Shown: positions 26,996 to 35,800 of the stretch, piece by piece | Layout of the letters: each line of letters opens with the position of its first letter | Numbering within the stretch: the stretch's first letter is position 1 | NCBI GenBank assembly: GCA_026391075.1 | Contig: JAPLES010000023.1 | Coordinates: 53,574-117,573 of the forward strand | Direction: 5' to 3' | Length of the DNA stretch: 64,000 nucleotides | Origin: Bacteroidota bacterium | GTDB lineage: Bacteria > Bacteroidota > Bacteroidia > Chitinophagales > LD1 | The notes under the pieces: model-generated | Seen by the model: only the letters and a program-made list of their open reading frames with translations | What the model was told of the DNA's origin: nothing | Databases searched by the model: none | Translations under genes and position numbers: made by a program

Positions 26996-29182
26996 TTAAA
27001 ATTTTGCTCCCAACCCTACATAAAAACTTCTTCTTAATGACGGAATGATTCCCGGACCCGGGTATTCATCAGTGCGCTTAGTGAAATATTTAGTGCCGGT
27101 TACATTGTTAAGCCCTGCTTTTATTTGGAAGCGTTTCAGAAATTTATAAGAGGCCGAAAGGTCTAACACAGTATAGGAAGGAATAAGACCTACTACGGCA
27201 TCATCGCTTTTAACGGTGTTATCAGCATCTGAAAAAGACTTTGATGTATGACTAACCAAAAGTGTTATGGAGAAACCCTGTACAGCGTACGTTGTTCCTA
27301 ATCGATTGATGAAACGCGGTGCGTTCTCTACAAAATTATTTTTGTAGAAACCGTTTACATAACGGGCATCAATAAACGTGAACGAATTGAAGAAGCTAAT
27401 GGTGCCGTATTTAGTAATAGAAGTAAAAGCCTTTACCAGATTTATTTCTACATAAGTTTCTGCACCTGCATGTCGGCTGTTGGCAACGTTTGTTCGATAG
27501 GTGTAAGTATTTCCATTCGCATCTGTTTTCTCCACCAAGCCAATACGATTGTTGTATTGCAAGTAGAATGCGCCAAAGTCGAAACTCAAAAAGTTCTTCA
27601 CTGTTCCTCTGAAGCCTAGGTCTGCATTGAACCCATTTGCATCTTTCATCTTCGGGTCAATTACCGATGTAGTTCCAATTGGAGAAAGTTGCGAATAATC
27701 AGTAGGGCGATACGCCTGTGTTACGTTTCCATAAAGCGAAGTGGTAGGGGTGGTTTTGTATTGCAAGCCAAGTCCTGCTAATGGAATGTAACGATTGGTT
27801 GCCTTATCTGCATTCACCACATAATTATCGTAAACGTTATATCCTTTTGCTGTTGAGTTTACGAACTCAAAACGGAAACCGGGTGTGATAGAGAATTTAT
27901 CAGTCACTCGAAAAATATTTTCTACAAATGGAGCAACGTTAATGGTGGTGAAACTCAAATCGTATTCAAAGCGCGGGTCCATTAAACTCAAATCAAAATC
28001 GCTGCCTGTTGTTCCCAAGCCTCCGCCTTGTCTGTGCATTTTGCCATAGTAGAAACGCGCACCTCCAGCAATAGTATTTTGCGTTTTTTTGATTCTGTAA
28101 TTTGCTGTAACGCGCAATTCGTTTGTTGTGCTTAAGAAAGTTTCCTTCTCCACTTCTCTGTTGCCGTATGTTCCTGTTGCAGGATCAATTTCATCAGGTT
28201 CTTCAGGCCCTCCATCTTCATTTTTCCAAACTAAATAACGAGCACTGGCTAAAAGCGATGAAGTGAAATTGATGGAAATATTTTTGCTGACATTGTATTC
28301 CAACTTAAACGCACCAACATTCCACGGACTCTTTAACCAGTTGCGTGCACGATAAGAAGCTCGAATATTTTCTTCATACTGCGCATCACTAAAACCACCG
28401 GGCATGTGAATACGATTGCGAAGTGCCGAATACTCTAAACTTATTTTTAGCATTTCATTTGGTGTAAATTGAATTTTTCCATAACCTGAAAACTGATTGT
28501 AGTTTGAATTAGGTCGCCAACCGTTGACATGCGTAAATTGAAAGTATCCGTAATAGCTGAACCATTTAATTTTGCCACCAATAGAATTGAACGAATTGAA
28601 CATACCATAGCTTCCGGCTGTTTGTTCTGTAGTAAACTCAAATTTCCTTTCGGGAGAATCACGAATAATGTAATTGATAACTCCGCCAAACTGCGGACCG
28701 AATTGCAAACTGGAAGCACCGCGAATTACTTCAATACGTTGCACCGCTTCAAGGTTCGGCAAGAAATAAGCTTCGGGGTAACCGTAAATATCCGCGGTGA
28801 TATTATAGCCGTTCATGCGCGTATTGGTTTCCATACTTTGCGAAGGATTCAAACCGCGAAAGCCAACACCGTTTGACGGGAAACCGCTTCCTTGAGTTTC
28901 GGAAAACACGGCACCGGGAATTCTTCCCATTACTTGTCGCGGATTATTTAACGCAGTGTTGGCGTCAATACTATCGGTAATTAATACTTCCGTTTTCTTT
29001 CCCGAATAAATAATTCCGTTGCTCACTTCATCTAAGTACCCCATACCCTTAACGGCTTTTACGCTCGTGATGGTCACTTCCGAAAGGTTGATTTTTTTTG
29101 AAACTGTTGTTGAATCCTGGGCTGAAATAAATGAAGTTGCTATGGCTAAATTTAGAAGTATGGCAAGGTATATTTTCTTCAT
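26996..29182 (-). CDS. TonB-dependent receptor (FecA-like)
   Basis: Plug motif VQRIEVIRGASSLQFGPQFGGVIN; C-terminal beta-strand ending in F. Confidence 0.93.
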   Translation of the reverse strand: MKKIYLAILLNLAIATSFISAQDSTTVSKKINLSEVTITSVKAVKGMGYLDEVSNGIIYSGKKTEVLITDSIDANTALNNPRQVMGRIPGAVFSETQGSGFPSNGVGFRGLNPSQSMETNTRMNGYNITADIYGYPEAYFLPNLEAVQRIEVIRGASSLQFGPQFGGVINYIIRDSPERKFEFTTEQTAGSYGMFNSFNSIGGKIKWFSYYGYFQFTHVNGWRPNSNYNQFSGYGKIQFTPNEMLKISLEYSALRNRIHMPGGFSDAQYEENIRASYRARNWLKSPWNVGAFKLEYNVSKNISINFTSSLLASARYLVWKNEDGGPEEPDEIDPATGTYGNREVEKETFLSTTNELRVTANYRIKKTQNTIAGGARFYYGKMHRQGGGLGTTGSDFDLSLMDPRFEYDLSFTTINVAPFVENIFRVTDKFSITPGFRFEFVNSTAKGYNVYDNYVVNADKATNRYIPLAGLGLQYKTTPTTSLYGNVTQAYRPTDYSQLSPIGTTSVIDPKMKDANGFNADLGFRGTVKNFLSFDFGAFYLQYNNRIGLVEKTDANGNTYTYRTNVANSRHAGAETYVEINLVKAFTSITKYGTISFFNSFTFIDARYVNGFYKNNFVENAPRFINRLGTTYAVQGFSITLLVSHTSKSFSDADNTVKSDDAVVGLIPSYTVLDLSASYKFLKRFQIKAGLNNVTGTKYFTKRTDEYPGPGIIPSLRRSFYVGLGAKF

Positions 29183-29187
29183 TTTTG

Positions 29188-29220
29188 TTATTTAGATTGA
29201 TTCTAATTAACGCAAATGTA
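29188..29220 (-). promoter_or_regulatory. Fur-like operator palindrome and -7 promoter box of the receptor operon
   Basis: TTATTTAGATTGATTCTAATTAA (29188-29210, 11-1-11 inverted repeat, 2 mismatched pairs) directly downstream of TACATTTG (29213-29220, minus strand). Confidence 0.65.
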
Positions 29221-29260
29221 GAAAGCGCATCTACTTTTCCAAATTAAATGGAAATGATTT

Positions 29261-29953
29261 TTGTCAGATGCGAAACCGCTTTATCTGTTTTGTATGTTTG
29301 CAGCCAAACAAAATTCCTTGACTTCCGAATCTGCTCACCACTCTTTATACAAAACTGCTTTTGCCCTGAGCATTTTTACCATTATCTATAATATTAGCGA
29401 AGGACTTATCTCCACTTATTTCGGATTTGAAAATGATACGCTCGCGCTTTTCGGTTTTGGTTTGGATAGTTTTATAGAAGCCATTTCAGCAATTGGAATT
29501 GCACACATGATTATTCGGATTATGAAAAATGCCGGAAGCCCGCAAGATGAATTTGAAATAACTGCACTTAAAATTACGGGCTATTCGTTTTATGCTTTGT
29601 GTTTTGTGTTAGCCATAATGTGTGTGCAAAAAATAATAGCGCACGAAAATCCTTCGACCACTTTTTGGGGAATTGTGATTTCTTCTTTCTCCATTGTGGT
29701 TATGCTTGGAACTATTTACTGGAAAACTTCACTTGGCAAGAAATTAAATTCACGAGCATTAATTGCTGATGCGAACTGCGCCAAAGTTTGTGTGTATATG
29801 AGCGTGGTGCTCCTTGTTTCTAGTTTACTTTATCATTTTTTCCACATCCCTTACATTGATATTGTCGGAACTATTGGCATCATTTACTTTTCTTACAAAG
29901 AAGGAAAAGAATGTTTTGATAAAGCGAAAGGAATTCACTGTTGTGAGTTATGA
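29261..29953 (+). CDS. cation diffusion facilitator-type transporter lacking the CTD
   Basis: YNISEG, ALFGFGLDSFIE, ALIADA, six TMs. True start probably further downstream (29294 or TTG 29318). Confidence 0.8.
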   Translation: MSDAKPLYLFCMFAAKQNSLTSESAHHSLYKTAFALSIFTIIYNISEGLISTYFGFENDTLALFGFGLDSFIEAISAIGIAHMIIRIMKNAGSPQDEFEITALKITGYSFYALCFVLAIMCVQKIIAHENPSTTFWGIVISSFSIVVMLGTIYWKTSLGKKLNSRALIADANCAKVCVYMSVVLLVSSLLYHFFHIPYIDIVGTIGIIYFSYKEGKECFDKAKGIHCCEL

Positions 29954-29964
29954 GCATTAATAAG

Positions 29965-30001
29965 AAAGAGCTTATAGGTTTTAAAAACCTATAAGCTCTT
30001 T
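29965..30001. repeat. perfect 18-bp palindrome; REP or bidirectional terminator
   Basis: AAAGAGCTTATAGGTTTT-a-AAAACCTATAAGCTCTTT between convergent genes. Confidence 0.8.
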
Positions 30002-30008
30002 GGAAAAT

Positions 30009-30926
30009 TTATAACTCAAACAATCCTTCAATAGAAAGATAACGTTCTCCTGTATCGTAATTGAAACCGAGAATTGTTTTGCCTGCAGGAATTTCTGAAA
30101 GCTTTTTTGCAATAGCTGCGAGAGTGGCTCCCGATGAAACTCCGCCAAACAATGCTTCTTCTTTTGCAGCGCGAATAGTGTAATCGTAAGCTTCTTCTTT
30201 GGTTACCAAAATAACGCCATCCAAAATTTTTGTGTCGAGATTGTTTGGAATAAATCCTGCACCAATTCCCTGGATGGGATGTGGTGATGGTTGACCCCCA
30301 CTGATGACAGGAGAAGCTGCCGGCTCCACAGCAAATACTTTTGTGTTCGGAAATTTCTCTTTCAAAATTCTTCCAACACCTGTAATGTGTCCGCCTGTAC
30401 CTACTCCTGTAATCAAGTAGTCAACTCCGTTTGGAAAATCTTTTAAGATTTCTTGTGCTGTTGTGCGTACATGCACATCAATGTTTGCAGGATTATCGAA
30501 TTGTTGGGGAATCCAACTGTTCGGAGTGACAGCCGCCAATTCGTTTGCTTTTTCAATAGCGCCTTTCATTCCTTTTTCGCGCGGAGTTAGTTCAAAACTT
30601 GCACCGTATGCTTTCATCAATCTTCTTCTTTCTAAACTCATGCTTTCTGGCATTACTAAAATCAGTTTATATCCTTTTACTGCAGCTACAATTGCTAAAC
30701 CTATTCCTGTGTTGCCCGAAGTTGGTTCAATAATTACACTTCCTTTTTTGAGCAATCCTTTTTGCTCTGCATCTTCAATCATTGATAATGCGATGCGGTC
30801 TTTAATACTTCCGCCTGGGTTTTGCCGTTCAAGTTTTATCCAGACATCATGTGTTGTTCCGAATAATTTGTTGATATGTAAATGTGGTGTGTTGCCAATG
30901 GTTTCTAGAATGTTATTTGCTTTCAT
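30009..30926 (-). CDS. cysK: cysteine synthase A
   Basis: [12 protein letters not shown] lysine, [30 protein letters not shown]. Confidence 0.97.
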
Positions 30927-30950
30927 TTTATTATTGGTTTTGTTTTATAC

Positions 30951-31766
30951 TTAAATTATAAAGTCAATTACTTCGTTCATTTCGCTCTTGTCTCTTATGT
31001 GAACATCACTTTTGTGATAGACAATCGATAGAGGCGGCACACCTGAAGTGAGCCAAACATTCCCTCCAATTACACTACTGTGTCCAATCGTAGTTTCTCC
31101 ACCTAGAATGCAACTACCTGCGTAAATCAATACATCATCTTCAATAGTAGGATGGCGTTTTGCTCCTTTCGTTTCTTTGCGAACAGCCAACGCTCCAAGT
31201 GTAACGCCCTGATAAATTTTTACTCGATTACCAATGATAGTTGTCTGCCCAACAACCACACCAGTGCCGTGGTCAATAAAAAACGGATTGCCTATTTGCG
31301 CTCCGGGATGAATGTCAATTCCTGTTTTGTTGTGTGCGTACTCACTGATAACGCGAGGCACAATAGGCACATTCAGCTTTGACAATTCATGAGCCAAACG
31401 ATAAACAGTAATAGCGTAGAAACCCGGGTACGCAATAATCACTTCTTCAATTCCTTGGGCAGCTGGGTCACTCTGAATAAAAAATTCTGCATCGGTAATC
31501 AACTTGTTGTAGATGGAAGGAAGAGAGGCGAAAAATTTCTCAATGATTTCTTCAGATGAAAGAGTGAGTCTATCTGCCAATGGCTTTAGAATATCTTTTA
31601 AGTGACGAGCCAAACGCTCCTGTGTTTCTTCTGCTACTTCGTAGCGAAAAGTAAAGGTTGATTCAATCGGAAAAATCAAATCAATCAGTTCATCGGTGAA
31701 CTTGTGAATAAAAGCACGTGATGGAATAGTGCTGAAATCAATTTTTTCGGATGGTTGCACTTGCAT
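30951..31766 (-). CDS. cysE: serine O-acetyltransferase
   Basis: DPAA, YPG, TGIDIHPGAQIG, FIDHGTGVV, YQGVTLGA, KRHPT. Confidence 0.95.
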   Translation of the reverse strand: MQVQPSEKIDFSTIPSRAFIHKFTDELIDLIFPIESTFTFRYEVAEETQERLARHLKDILKPLADRLTLSSEEIIEKFFASLPSIYNKLITDAEFFIQSDPAAQGIEEVIIAYPGFYAITVYRLAHELSKLNVPIVPRVISEYAHNKTGIDIHPGAQIGNPFFIDHGTGVVVGQTTIIGNRVKIYQGVTLGALAVRKETKGAKRHPTIEDDVLIYAGSCILGGETTIGHSSVIGGNVWLTSGVPPLSIVYHKSDVHIRDKSEMNEVIDFII

Positions 31767-31784
31767 GGTTTAAATTTTTAGAAT

Positions 31785-31812
31785 AAAAAACCCTTCGTGG
31801 TAGCGAAGGGTT
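31785..31812 (-). terminator. intrinsic terminator (attenuator) in the cysE leader
   Basis: Minus strand AACCCTTCG-ctacca-CGAAGGG followed by TTTTTT, 18 nt before the cysE ATG. Confidence 0.85.
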
Positions 31813-31853
31813 CAGAAATATTTTTTGAAATCGTTTACTAATTACAAAATGTA

Positions 31854-31907
31854 TTAACAGCCCCTGTAAGGAGAACAACAGCAACGCATATTTTGTAAAC
31901 GTATCAT
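31854..31907 (-). CDS. putative Cys-rich attenuator leader peptide (17 aa)
   Basis: ATG ATA CGT TTA CAA AAT ATG CGT TGC TGT TGT TCT CCT TAC AGG GGC TGT TAA = MIRLQNMRCCCSPYRGC*. Confidence 0.8.
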   Translation of the reverse strand: MIRLQNMRCCCSPYRGC

Positions 31908-31998
31908 TGGGCTAAAATAGAAATTTCCTTTTACTGCAAAATTATTTTAGAAAATTCACCCTGTAATTATTGTTATTCTTGTTCAACAAACCATTTGA

Positions 31999-32823
31999 AT
32001 GACCTATCACTGTTTTGAATTTTTTACGCGCGATGAAGTGGAACGCGATTGGCTCATTTCCATTTTAAGCGATTTTCATTTTGAAGGTTTCGAAGAAACT
32101 TCCGATTCGCTCAAAGGATTTGTGTATGCCGATAAAATAACCAACGACAAGGTAGCCGAGATTCTTGCCGACAATGAATTCGCACATATTGAATTCACAT
32201 CTTCAGCAATTGAACAAAAAAACTGGAATGAAGAATGGGAGAAAAATTTTGAGCTCGTTTTAATTGCTGAACGTGTTGCTATACGCGCACCTTTCCATGA
32301 AAAGCAGAATGCAGAATTCGAAATTATCATTGAACCCAAAATGAGTTTCGGCACGGGGCATCATGCTACAACTGCAGGAGTTATTGAGTTAATGCTTACT
32401 GAAAATTTCGAAAACAAAAGCGTGCTTGACTTCGGCAGCGGCACAGGTGTGCTCGCCATTCTTGCTGAAAAGTTGAAAGCAAAATCTGTTTTTGCAATTG
32501 ATAATGAAGAATGGGCTTACCATAACTGTATAGAGAATGTGCAACGCAATAATTGCCAAGTCATAAAAACTGTTCAAGGAGATACCCAATACGCTTTCAA
32601 CGAAAAATTTGATGTTATTTTAGCCAACATCAACCGCAACGTTATTCTGAGCAACATTCACAAGTGGAAAAGTTTGCTGAGTGAAAAAGGAATATTGCTC
32701 GTGAGCGGAATATTATTGAACGATGAAAAGGATGTGGTGGCAGAAGCCCGAAAAAACAGTGTATCCCCCAAATCAATTATCAGAAACAATGGCTGGTTAG
32801 CCATTTCATTTCAACTACTTTAA
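31999..32823 (+). CDS. prmA: ribosomal protein L11 methyltransferase
   Basis: NWNEEW, PKMSFGTGHHATT, LDFGSGTGVL, ILANIN. Confidence 0.95.
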   Translation: MTYHCFEFFTRDEVERDWLISILSDFHFEGFEETSDSLKGFVYADKITNDKVAEILADNEFAHIEFTSSAIEQKNWNEEWEKNFELVLIAERVAIRAPFHEKQNAEFEIIIEPKMSFGTGHHATTAGVIELMLTENFENKSVLDFGSGTGVLAILAEKLKAKSVFAIDNEEWAYHNCIENVQRNNCQVIKTVQGDTQYAFNEKFDVILANINRNVILSNIHKWKSLLSEKGILLVSGILLNDEKDVVAEARKNSVSPKSIIRNNGWLAISFQLL

Positions 32824-32841
32824 GCAAAAAATATTTTCAGC

Positions 32842-35800
32842 ATGAAAAGAATTTCATTCTCGCTTCTACTTTTCTTATTTGTTAGCACACAGGCGCAACA
32901 AGTGACTATGACCTTTTCTAAAGAACAAGGTCAGTTTATTAAGGACTTGGGTTCGTTTATGACAGCCAATAAAATGGAGCAGTGCGTAAACACCATGAAT
33001 GCTATTGAAAAAGTAGCCAAGGATGGAAAAATACCGTCTTCCTGGTTTGAGCAAATGTCGAAAACATGTAACTTAATGACTGAGCGTAACATGAGTGCAT
33101 ACACGCATTTTGTTCCGTATTTAAATGCGGTAATGAGTGCTGCAAAAAATGGCATTAGCGATAGCGAGTTTTCGTCTTGGTCAAATTTTTTAGGCGATAT
33201 AATCGAGGCACAGAAGAAAGGCGACAACGGTGGTTTTTTAAAAACGATAGATTTCTCTACCGGCTTTTTTGAGCTTGGTGCGCTGGATGTTACACCGGCA
33301 AAAACGTGGAAGGTAGATACTAGAAATTGCACGTTCAATTCAGAAGGATTGCGCCCACATGTAACCTTTGGAGTTACCACACTTGTGGGTGCAGTGAAGG
33401 GCGATTCGGTCATGATTAAACAAACGTCAGGTGATTATTATCCGCTCGAAAATAAGTGGGAAGGAAATTCGGGGCGCGTTGATTGGGCACGCGGTTCGCT
33501 CGACCCTAATAAAGTTTATTGCACCTTTAAAAATTACACTGTTAATTGTACAAACTTCAACTACATAGTTGACACGGTTACCTTTTATCATACCGATTAT
33601 TTCAAAACTGCACTCACCGGTAAACTGCTTGATAAAATGGTTTCGAGTGCCGACTCTTCAACCATGAGTTATCCGCGTTTTGAATCGTATGACATGGGCA
33701 TTACAGTAAAAGATATTGCACCCAATGTTTCTTACACCGGAGGATTCAGTTTGTATGGAGGAAAAGTTTTGGGTTATGGAACACCCGAAGAAAAAGCGAT
33801 GCTTACGTTTTATGCGCGCGATGGAAAAACAAGAGTGCTCTCTGCAAAATCATCTTCCATTTCAGTAAAGAAAGGTGAAGAGTTAGGTGCCGATAAAGCT
33901 GAGGTGAGTATTTATTTCGGAACCGATTCCATTTACCATCCGCAGTTAAGTGTGGTCTATAAAATCAAGAAACGCGAAATTCGTTTGCTGCGTGGTGAAA
34001 CGGGAATGGGCAAAGCAAAATTCATGGACTCGTATCACAATCATGAATTTCAAACCGATGCTATTTTTTGGAATTTAGATTCATCGGTTTTGAATCTGAA
34101 AATTCTTTCAGGTGCAGGGCAGAAGCCCGGAATTTTTGAATCGGTAAACTATTTTCAAAAAGAATTGATTCGCAAAACACAAGGCTTTGCATCGTATGAA
34201 CCTCTTTCTGTTTTGAAAAAACTTTATGAGAAGTACGGTTCGCGCGATTTAAATGCAACAGACGTAGCGCGTTCACTCGATCCAAATTTGAAAGAAGGAG
34301 AATTGAAATCGCTCCTCTACAGTTTGGTGGAAAATGGTTTTGTACTTTACAACGAAGGCACCGGAGTTATTACTGTAAAAGACAAAACACTAAACTATGT
34401 TTTGGCGAATGCAAAAAAAATTGATTACGATATTATTCGAATTAAATCGGCTCCTGCTTCGGGTAACGACTACATTGATTTGAAGAGTAGTAATATTGAT
34501 TTGAAAGGCGTGCAGGAAGTGCCTATCAGCGATTCCAGCTTTGTTTATTTCCGTCCAAAAAACAACGCCATTAGTTTGCAGAAAGACCGCAACATGGAGT
34601 TCAACGGATTGATTTATGCTGGAAGAATGGATTTGTATGGCGAGAAATACAAATTTCAATATGCGCCTTTCACCGTTGATTTGTTGAAGGTGGACACCAT
34701 GCGAATCAACGTGCAAGACAGCGGAAAGGTGGACGGCTACGGAAATCCGATTTTGAAAATGCTGAAATCGAAAGTGGAAGGCATGAAAGGCTTGCTGGAA
34801 ATTGATGCGCCTATCAATAAATCAGGCAGAACAAAATTGCCGCAGTTTCCAAGATTGTATAGTCGCGAAAAATCGTACATCTATTATGATGATTCTACGG
34901 TGGCAAAAGGAGCATATAACCGCAAGAGTTTTTATTTCGAGTTAGATCCTTTTCGCTTAGACAGCTTGAATAATTTCAGTGGCGATATCATTAACTGGAA
35001 AGGAAAATTTTCTTCAGGGGGAATTTTGCCCGACCTGCGCGACAGTGTAAAAATACAAGCCGATGGTTCGCTCGGTTTTAAATCTGAAACACCTAAAGAA
35101 GGGTACGATTTATACAAAGGCAAAGGAAAATATTACGGCAAGTTTGAATTGAAATATGCAGGGCTTGAAGGCGATGGAAGAATTACGCACTCCACAGCCG
35201 ATTTTATTAGCCACGATACCCGCTTTTATCCTGATTCTATGTTAGGCACCACAGATAGTTTTGCGATTGCAAAAACTTTTGAAGGGGTAAAAACACCGGC
35301 TGTAAAAGGTCACAACGATCGCATTTTTTGGAAACCGAATTCAGATAGCATGCACATTTACATGAACAGCAAAGACGAACCATTTGCTATGTATGATGAT
35401 GGATTTACTTCGTTCAAAGGTGATTTGTTGTTGACCGGAAAAGGATTGCGAGGAAACGGTTTGCTCGATTGGGATGAAGCTACACTGTCTTCTAAAGATT
35501 TCAGTTTTCAAACCATGAATCTTTCGGCTGATACTTCTGCACTCAATATTAAATCAACAGGTGATAGAGTAACTTTCAAAACGCCAAACGTAAATGCCAA
35601 AGTTGATTTCAAAACGCGTATTGGTGATTTTGTTTCGAACCAAAAAAATATTCCTACCGAATTTTCATACAATCAGTACACCACGGCCATCAATCAATTC
35701 AAATGGTTGATGGACGAAAAAATTCTTGACTTCAAAGCACCACCACAAGGACCCGGAGAATATTTTGTTTCTACACGTCCCGATCAAAAAGGGTTGAAGT

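Follow-up and report, generated by a model that had tools for sequence, protein, structure and literature searches.

We analyse here the leader of two cysteine-synthesis genes, a serine O-acetyltransferase-like gene (cysE) and the cysteine synthase A gene cysK, in a stretch of 64,000 nucleotides (nt) from a Bacteroidota bacterium of the order Chitinophagales (assembly GCA_026391075.1, contig JAPLES010000023.1, positions 53,574 to 117,573), hereafter called the window. Comparison with the leaders of relatives indicates that this element is very probably a ribosome-mediated leader-peptide transcription attenuator, which would sense charged tRNA-Cys and control read-through into cysE-cysK. Its component parts are present and conserved in the genus, leaders of the same kind stand ahead of cysteine and sulfur genes, and the candidate antiterminator strand covaries with the arm of the terminator that it faces. 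From these comparisons the element appears to be real, conserved and cysteine-linked, and part of a wider family that would mark a cysteine/sulfur regulon.

Organization of the cysE-cysK leader

The leader lies between cysE and the upstream gene prmA (31999-32823), which is on the opposite strand and divergent from cysE. It includes a short open reading frame (sORF) with a run of Cys codons, followed by an intrinsic terminator:

31937-31940, minus strand: candidate -33 element TTTG, 17 nt 5' of the -7 box, placed from the numbering of the box
31912-31919, minus strand: -7-type promoter box TATTTTAG, with one mismatch to TAnnTTTG
31911-31908, minus strand: spacer CCCA, 4 nt, between the -7 box and the ATG, read from the sequence
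31854-31907, minus strand: leader sORF MIRLQNMRCCCSPYRGC*, 17 codons plus TAA; the A at 31907 is the predicted transcription start
31875-31883, minus strand: Cys codons TGC TGT TGT, codons 9-11 of the sORF, the proposed sensing codons
31869-31873, minus strand: pyrimidine tract CTCCT, just 3' of the Cys codons, part of strand 1 and alternative partner of the G-rich strand
31861-31865, minus strand: G-rich strand AGGGG (strand 2), within the sORF, the candidate antiterminator strand
31852-31855, minus strand: AATA, 5' strand of the inner antiterminator helix, overlapping the stop codon (stalled-ribosome fold)
31817-31820, minus strand: TATT, 3' strand of the inner antiterminator helix (stalled-ribosome fold)
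31785-31813, minus strand: intrinsic terminator, GAACCCTTCG, loop CTACCA, CGAAGGGTT(T), T6 (consensus scan and fold)
30951-31766, minus strand: serine O-acetyltransferase-like gene (cysE), first gene (profile matches)
30009-30926, minus strand: cysK (cysteine synthase A), second gene of the operon, 406 bits against TIGR01139

The product of cysE reaches 156 bits with TIGR01172, short of the cut-off of that model (210.65), and 150.4 bits with NF041874, whose cut-off is 150. A fourth Cys codon directly precedes the TAA of the sORF, and AGGGG lies 9 nt past the last codon of the Cys run and 4 nt ahead of the stop. A spacer of 40 nt then leads to the terminator, whose 5' arm (strand 3, with CCCTT at 31810-31806) and 3' arm (strand 4) form a GC-rich stem of 9-10 base pairs (bp) followed by T6. 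Since prmA is divergent, this hairpin is not the prmA terminator, and since the 18 nt between the T run and the cysE ATG (31766) leave no room for a separate promoter, cysE would depend on read-through.

These parts had been proposed in a first-pass annotation of the same DNA, and nearly all of them are found where it placed them: the -7-like box (31912-31919) 4 nt ahead of an open reading frame (ORF), the 17-codon ORF itself (31907-31854) with three consecutive Cys codons and a fourth before the stop, AGGGG (31865-31861) and CTCCT (31873-31869), and the distance of 18 nt from the end of the terminator to the cysE ATG. The two internal pairings that it described are exact complements (31898-31890 with 31850-31842, and 31901-31895 with 31838-31832). 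The GC-rich hairpin with its U6 tail also exists, with a span of 31813-31785 instead of the start at 31812 first given. When folded freely, the whole leader is modestly more stable than its shuffled versions (z-score -2.33, with 2 of 200 shuffles equal or better).

Bacteroidota are a phylum without Shine-Dalgarno-led initiation, and a sigma-70 promoter scan is uninformative for them. In a flavobacterium, the sigma-A box TAnnTTTG occupies positions -12 to -5, and leaderless mRNAs represent 5.5% of all mRNAs (PMC9723704). The same numbering puts +1 on the A of the sORF ATG in the window, in line with the leaderless start that the first-pass annotation had suggested. Consistently, TAnnTT[A/C/T]G stands exactly 4 nt ahead of the ATG in 15 of 19 leaders of the genus, and this spacing recurs in other families. 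The sORF mRNA is therefore predicted from its promoter to be leaderless, with a start at the ATG or within a base of it.

Concerning chance, the genome (40% G+C) has 702 runs of at least three TGY triplets in 2 x 3,606,139 nt, that is about 0.04 expected per 400 nt. The succession of a box, 3-5 nt, an ATG, an sORF of 8-40 codons and a terminator occurs at five places genome-wide, and an amino-acid run is present only at the window leader. When the genome was scanned for intergenic sORFs that have both an amino-acid run and a terminator behind them, six distinct sORFs were recovered, two of which are poly-Cys leaders before cysteine-synthesis genes and one an sORF with four His codons before his-like genes.

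Conservation upstream of cysE

The cysE comparison set consisted of 41 genomes, the genome of the window and 40 relatives, and a full-length orthologue of the acetyltransferase is present in 22 of them. As the first-pass annotation had proposed that such orthologues be inspected for poly-Cys sORFs and terminators, we compared their upstream regions and found the same layout in 18 of the 22 genomes, corresponding to 18 of 19 in the genus and none of three in other families. Its elements are, in order, a -7 box, an ATG, 6-8 codons leading to a run of 3-6 Cys codons, then 8-14 nt, a G-rich strand, the stop, a spacer and the terminator AACCCTTCG...CGAAGGGTT with its T run. Past the Cys run, the peptide is not conserved in the leaders of the genus, whereas a GGG is kept and occurs in all three reading frames, which argues for a constraint at the RNA level. 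A strong hairpin with a T run is found in all 19 leaders of the genus, and nine pairs of the terminator are nearly invariant.

A test for such sORFs over 97 distinct upstream regions was positive for 28 of 97 in the sense orientation and for none of 97 in antisense; one of the 28, a Deinococcus locus, resembles chance. Among a wider set of named records, a similar leader and terminator precede cysE in Foetidibacter, in Perlabentimonas and other Bacteroidales, in a metagenome-assembled genome (MAG) of Rikenella and in two Flavobacterium MAGs. Two cultured strains, Foetidibacter luteolus YG09 and Perlabentimonas gracilis M08_MB, have such a leader before cysE.

Longer upstream ORFs (uORFs) with 3-6 Cys codons directly ahead of the stop precede cysE at five Melioribacter-like loci (L037, L038, L044, L046 and L047) and at one of Chlorobiota (L064). 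No clear intrinsic terminator was found in these leaders, and they were not counted as being of the window type. They resemble the type described in Actinobacteria (see below) and may work differently.

The strong conservation within the genus of the terminator and of the block ahead of it could also be expected of a protein- or metabolite-binding RNA switch in which the Cys codons are incidental. We regard this as extremely unlikely. In fact, the in-frame ATG, the Cys run and the stop persist where the sequence around them has diverged, and leaders with unrelated terminators share only the layout and the Cys run. Moreover, a permissive Rfam scan of positions 29000-34000 gave no family at threshold, the best match being Phe_leader (RF01859) with 25.7 bits against a threshold of 55.

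Poly-Cys leaders ahead of other cysteine and sulfur genes

The genome of the window contains a second poly-Cys leader (contig C11:19690-19773, plus strand; locus L111), with an sORF of 27 codons carrying a CC-I-CCCCC cluster and followed by a terminator. It precedes genes for a PALP (CysM-like) protein, a Prok-JAB protein and a ThiS-ThiF fusion, a set which we take to resemble a thiocarboxylate-dependent cysteine route. The end of its sORF is complementary to the arm of its own, different terminator. A poly-Cys leader and a terminator accompany all four operons of the CysM-like/JAB/ThiS-ThiF type detected in the 41 genomes. Two of the four belong to genomes of the same genus (G005 and G009) in which the acetyltransferase of the window has no match, and within the genus one cysteine route may replace the other.

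To cover the order, a covariance model (R1) built from the 19 leaders of the genus was searched in 151 genomes. At weak scores R1 is unspecific, as 103 of the 151 genomes have a match at E <= 0.01, many of which are plain terminators, and only the best loci were read. Among the best 29 non-self loci, 22 have an sORF with at least three Cys codons and two show CFCC or CC; the remainder are four plain terminators and one gene end. The genes behind these 22 leaders code for CysM-like proteins (eight), acetyltransferases (five), Cys/Met pyridoxal-phosphate (PLP) enzymes (three), enzymes of the nitrite/sulfite-reductase type (three) and others (three), so that 19 of 22 precede cysteine or sulfur genes. 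At the level of the order, 22 of 23 non-duplicate leaders possess a strong hairpin and T run.

Three poly-Cys leaders with matching antiterminator strands stand before genes for a 1-Cys peroxiredoxin (L132), a DUF4395 protein (L137) and a protein with no Pfam match (L147), a hint that cysteine supply and redox defence may be connected. At two other loci (L140 and L148), two poly-Cys sORFs follow each other ahead of a single CysM-like gene and may represent tandem attenuators.

Across the phylum, R1 matches 10 of 151 genomes at E <= 1e-5. The eight new loci comprise three with at least three consecutive Cys codons, two with CC or CMCC, one His leader and two gene ends, and this sample adds further examples in other orders and in another class. 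The His leader (L162, from another class of the phylum) is an sORF with four His codons and a terminator ahead of a hisG-like gene, so that attenuators of the leader-peptide type, alike in size and layout, also occur elsewhere in the phylum.

These distributions bear on a further explanation, according to which the sORF would be an independent gene for a small Cys-rich peptide, for example metal-binding or redox-active, with its own terminator, while cysE would be transcribed from its own promoter. An ORF that could be of this nature does exist in the genome, away from cysteine-synthesis genes: it has 29 codons, 11 Cys residues and a terminator (contig C60:118435-118521, plus strand), lies upstream of MIP-channel-like and small phosphatase/ArsC-like genes, as assigned by eye, and could be, instead of a leader, the gene of a small peptide that binds metal or arsenic. 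As for a separate cysE promoter, a candidate inside the leader was noticed by eye, TATTTCTG at 31820-31813, but it is a poor -7-like box with no TTTG at the right distance, and it was rejected. At the window leader and its relatives, the Cys run and the nucleotide features are conserved while the peptide is not, the T run ends only 18 nt before the cysE ATG, and cysteine or sulfur genes follow 19 of the 22 order-level leaders. An independent peptide gene is thus very unlikely.

Pairing between the post-Cys strand and the terminator

The decisive mark of an attenuator is a strand that competes for the 5' arm of the terminator. Over the full length of the leader, the segment that pairs best with this arm lies 7-13 nt past the last Cys codon in 18 of the 19 leaders of the genus; in the window this segment is AGGGG. 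The first-pass annotation had also suggested that the leader be folded with a stalled ribosome. A ribosome was placed with the first Cys codon in its A site, and the RNA left uncovered on its 3' side was folded as far as the last base of the terminator 5' arm. In each of the 19 leaders, CCCUU is then paired with the G-rich strand, and a long imperfect hairpin is closed. The inner helix of this antiterminator is kept in relatives with a different sequence.

As the terminator is near-invariant within the genus, the pairing had to be tested across leaders with different terminators. In CysM-type leaders, GGTGGA(G) faces CTCCACC, and one of them has TTTCAGCGGG facing CCTCGCTGAAA; in Flavobacterium leaders, GAGGAGTC faces GACTCTTC. 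When five terminator classes were swapped, the cognate pairing was the strongest in five of five rows and four of five columns. In leaders of other families (n=22), the partner starts 5-23 nt past the Cys run in 21 of 22, with a mean z-score of -2.5. Finally, in a permutation test over 51 leaders the cognate pairing is stronger than expected by -2.33 kcal/mol, and over 29 distinct arm sequences by -3.02 kcal/mol; in both cases none of 5000 permutations reaches the observed value. The AGGGG/CCCUU pairing, put forward only tentatively in the first-pass annotation, therefore corresponds to a conserved antiterminator whose strand covaries with the terminator arm across leaders, and which is weak in the window copy.

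This weakness of the window antiterminator would be expected if the sORF sensed cysteine and acted mainly on the translation of cysE or on the stability of its mRNA, the hairpin being a constitutive partial terminator or a stabiliser. Two further observations agree with such a mode of action: the Cys run of the Melioribacter-like and Chlorobiota leaders is terminal and no clear terminator follows it, and the only poly-Cys leaderless sORFs studied experimentally, those of mycobacteria, act on translation (bioRxiv 10.1101/834739). On the other hand, a strong hairpin with a T run accompanies 19 of 19 leaders of the genus and 22 of 23 non-duplicate order-level leaders, and the strand past the Cys codons tracks the terminator 5' arm and not the start region of cysE. 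We consequently see control at the level of translation or stability as unlikely, and return to a transcription attenuator as the preferred reading.

Proposed mechanism

From these observations we infer the translation of the sORF, the stalling of the ribosome, the start of transcription and the regulatory outcome, as follows. Transcription would start at the A of the sORF ATG or within a base of it, as deduced from the promoter geometry, and a ribosome would translate the 17 codons behind the advancing RNA polymerase. When Cys-tRNA is plentiful, the ribosome would reach the stop and cover AGGGG, which lies 4 nt ahead of it; after its release, AGGGG would re-pair with the Cys codons or with the CUCCU tract. 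Either way, the terminator (31813-31785) would form and transcription would end 18 nt before cysE. When Cys-tRNA is scarce, the ribosome would stall on UGC UGU UGU and cover the Cys codons and the pyrimidine tract, leaving AGGGG free. Stacked on the inner helix AAUA/UAUU, AGGGG would then pair with CCCUU in the emerging 5' arm, the terminator would be blocked, and the polymerase would read into cysE-cysK.

The geometry is compatible with this scheme: a ribosome positioned on the Cys codons would cover them together with CUCCU and leave AGGGG free, whereas one at the stop would cover AGGGG, and the sensing codons are about 90-98 nt from the end of the T run. A similar span separates the codons from the end of the terminator in trp. 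Both the stall/stop geometry and this span fit the classical attenuation model. In the free-RNA fold of the window leader, the bases of the Cys codons pair with the G-rich strand.

A number of points weigh against this interpretation. The leader is missing at 4 of the 22 orthologous cysE loci; the relatives are kin, and the counts overstate their independence; and the order-wide set is biased towards a Cys run and a similar terminator, because the model was built from leaders of the genus. The window antiterminator is short, with five pairs, including one G-U, and an inner helix of 4 bp, and its stability is about -6.4 kcal/mol against about -12 to -13 kcal/mol for the terminator. Taken alone it is not above chance (19% of shuffles are as good; z-score -0.6), and in the swap test it ranks 21 of 29, among the weakest. 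As shuffles at this single locus are not significant, the argument relies on the comparison across leaders. RNAalifold recovered only the near-invariant terminator from the whole-leader alignment, and gave no antiterminator consensus for the post-Cys segment aligned with MAFFT; the latter result is explained by the fact that MAFFT sets the G-rich strand out of register, and duplex, swap and permutation tests were used instead. When the free RNA is folded, 15 of 19 leaders have their G-rich strand paired to the Cys codons or to the pyrimidine tract, in the region that a stalled ribosome would cover, a count that has no chance control. Lastly, the scheme assumes that transcription and translation are coupled in this phylum. 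On balance, the comparison of sequences still supports the transcriptional Cys attenuator that the first-pass annotation had proposed.

Comparison with known leader-peptide systems

The classical attenuators are those of the trp operon of E. coli and the his operon of Salmonella. Like them, the window element has a short ORF with tandem codons for the end product (three Cys codons before cysE-cysK), an intrinsic terminator ahead of the first structural gene, and a strand past the regulatory codons that would compete with the terminator 3' arm for the 5' arm, a feature that is clear at the level of the family and weak in the window copy. It differs from them in sensing cysteine, in its predicted leaderless start with no Shine-Dalgarno sequence, in its Bacteroidota host, in its compact leader of 17 codons and in the short antiterminator of the window copy. 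At the level of sequence it presents the features that define the trp and his attenuators, and would work like them.

The same genome offers a parallel for another amino acid. On contig C44 (99121-99171, plus strand), four His codons in a row occur in an sORF that is followed by a strong terminator and stands 70 nt ahead of genes which, as judged by eye, are hisG-, hisD- and hisC-like. This leader shares with that of the window a short ORF, a terminator and the position before biosynthetic genes, and differs in its regulatory codons; no -7 box was seen 4 nt ahead of its ATG. This is likely a histidine attenuator, which suggests that this type of switch serves the organism for more than one amino acid.

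Concerning cysteine, leaderless sORFs with consecutive Cys codons have been described in mycobacteria upstream of cysteine-related operons, where they are conserved in the clade and several are present per genome (Canestrari et al., 2020; bioRxiv 10.1101/834739). They work at the level of translation, through pairing of the Cys tract with the ribosome-binding region downstream, and in the account of the preprint no terminator or antiterminator takes part. A 2026 paper still files these mycobacterial poly-Cys uORFs under translation attenuation. The window sORF resembles them in being leaderless (as predicted), in its Cys run and in the cysteine-related genes downstream, and differs in its conserved intrinsic terminator and in the competing strand past the Cys codons, which pairs with the terminator arm; we claim no sequence relationship between the two.

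Another case is the uORFC-8-2 motif of Rhodobacterales (Alphaproteobacteria), a predicted ribosome-mediated attenuator before cysS, with tandem Cys codons, a terminator stem and a U run (Brewer et al., 2021; PMC8632094). As described, it has two Cys codons, at positions 14-15 within the first stem, and controls a gene for a tRNA synthetase, whereas the leaders reported here have 3-7 Cys codons, precede biosynthetic or sulfur-assimilation genes and belong to another phylum; the comparison is one of descriptions only. In Actinobacteria, short ORFs with Cys runs upstream of cys or cbs operons have been proposed as candidate Cys leader peptides (Seliverstov et al., 2005; PMC1262725). Unlike in the window element, their runs are near the stop codon and, as described there, they have no conserved terminator.

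We found no description of the control of cysteine synthesis in Bacteroidota in the literature searched. Attenuation papers from the Gelfand and Lyubetsky groups (FEMS Microbiol Lett, 2004; Mol Biol, 2010) reportedly mention Bacteroidetes, and an earlier prediction may be contained in them. No cysteine attenuator of Bacteroidota was found in the literature either, and the candidate lists in the supplements of PMC9723704 (SI Appendix D9, Table S7) and PMC7366714 (Supplementary Data 3) might include one. The poly-Cys terminator-type attenuator would thus be a further member of the leader-peptide attenuators, for which we found no earlier description in Bacteroidota.

Other features of the locus

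One more feature belongs to the operon:

29965-30001, minus strand: perfect hairpin of 17 bp past cysK, where the operon probably ends; the convergent gene at 29261-29953 shares it

The convergent gene is cation-efflux-like and on the plus strand. Being located between its end and that of cysK, the hairpin is likely a two-way terminator. In the Rfam scan, the matches stacked on this hairpin are all sub-threshold and without meaning.

Implications for cysteine regulation in Bacteroidota

It is possible, and we advance this more tentatively than the reading of the window element itself, that poly-Cys, mostly leaderless leaders are the main regulator of the cysteine/sulfur regulon across Bacteroidota, in place of the protein regulators of other phyla. 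Such a regulon would take in serine acetyltransferase-cysK, CysM/JAB/ThiS-ThiF, sulfite reductase, an O-acetylhomoserine/serine sulfhydrylase-like enzyme and possibly 1-Cys peroxiredoxin. In these leaders, the antiterminator strand would be sequestered by the sensing codons themselves, and an AUG at the very 5' end would guarantee ribosome loading once the RNA emerges.

If the proposed attenuator is correct, cysteine would join the amino acids that are sensed by terminator-based attenuation ahead of biosynthetic genes. The element would also provide indirect evidence for the coupling of transcription and translation and for a regulatory use of leaderless initiation. For uncultured Bacteroidota, it would represent a simple, protein-free control of cysteine synthesis and a ready marker of the regulon.

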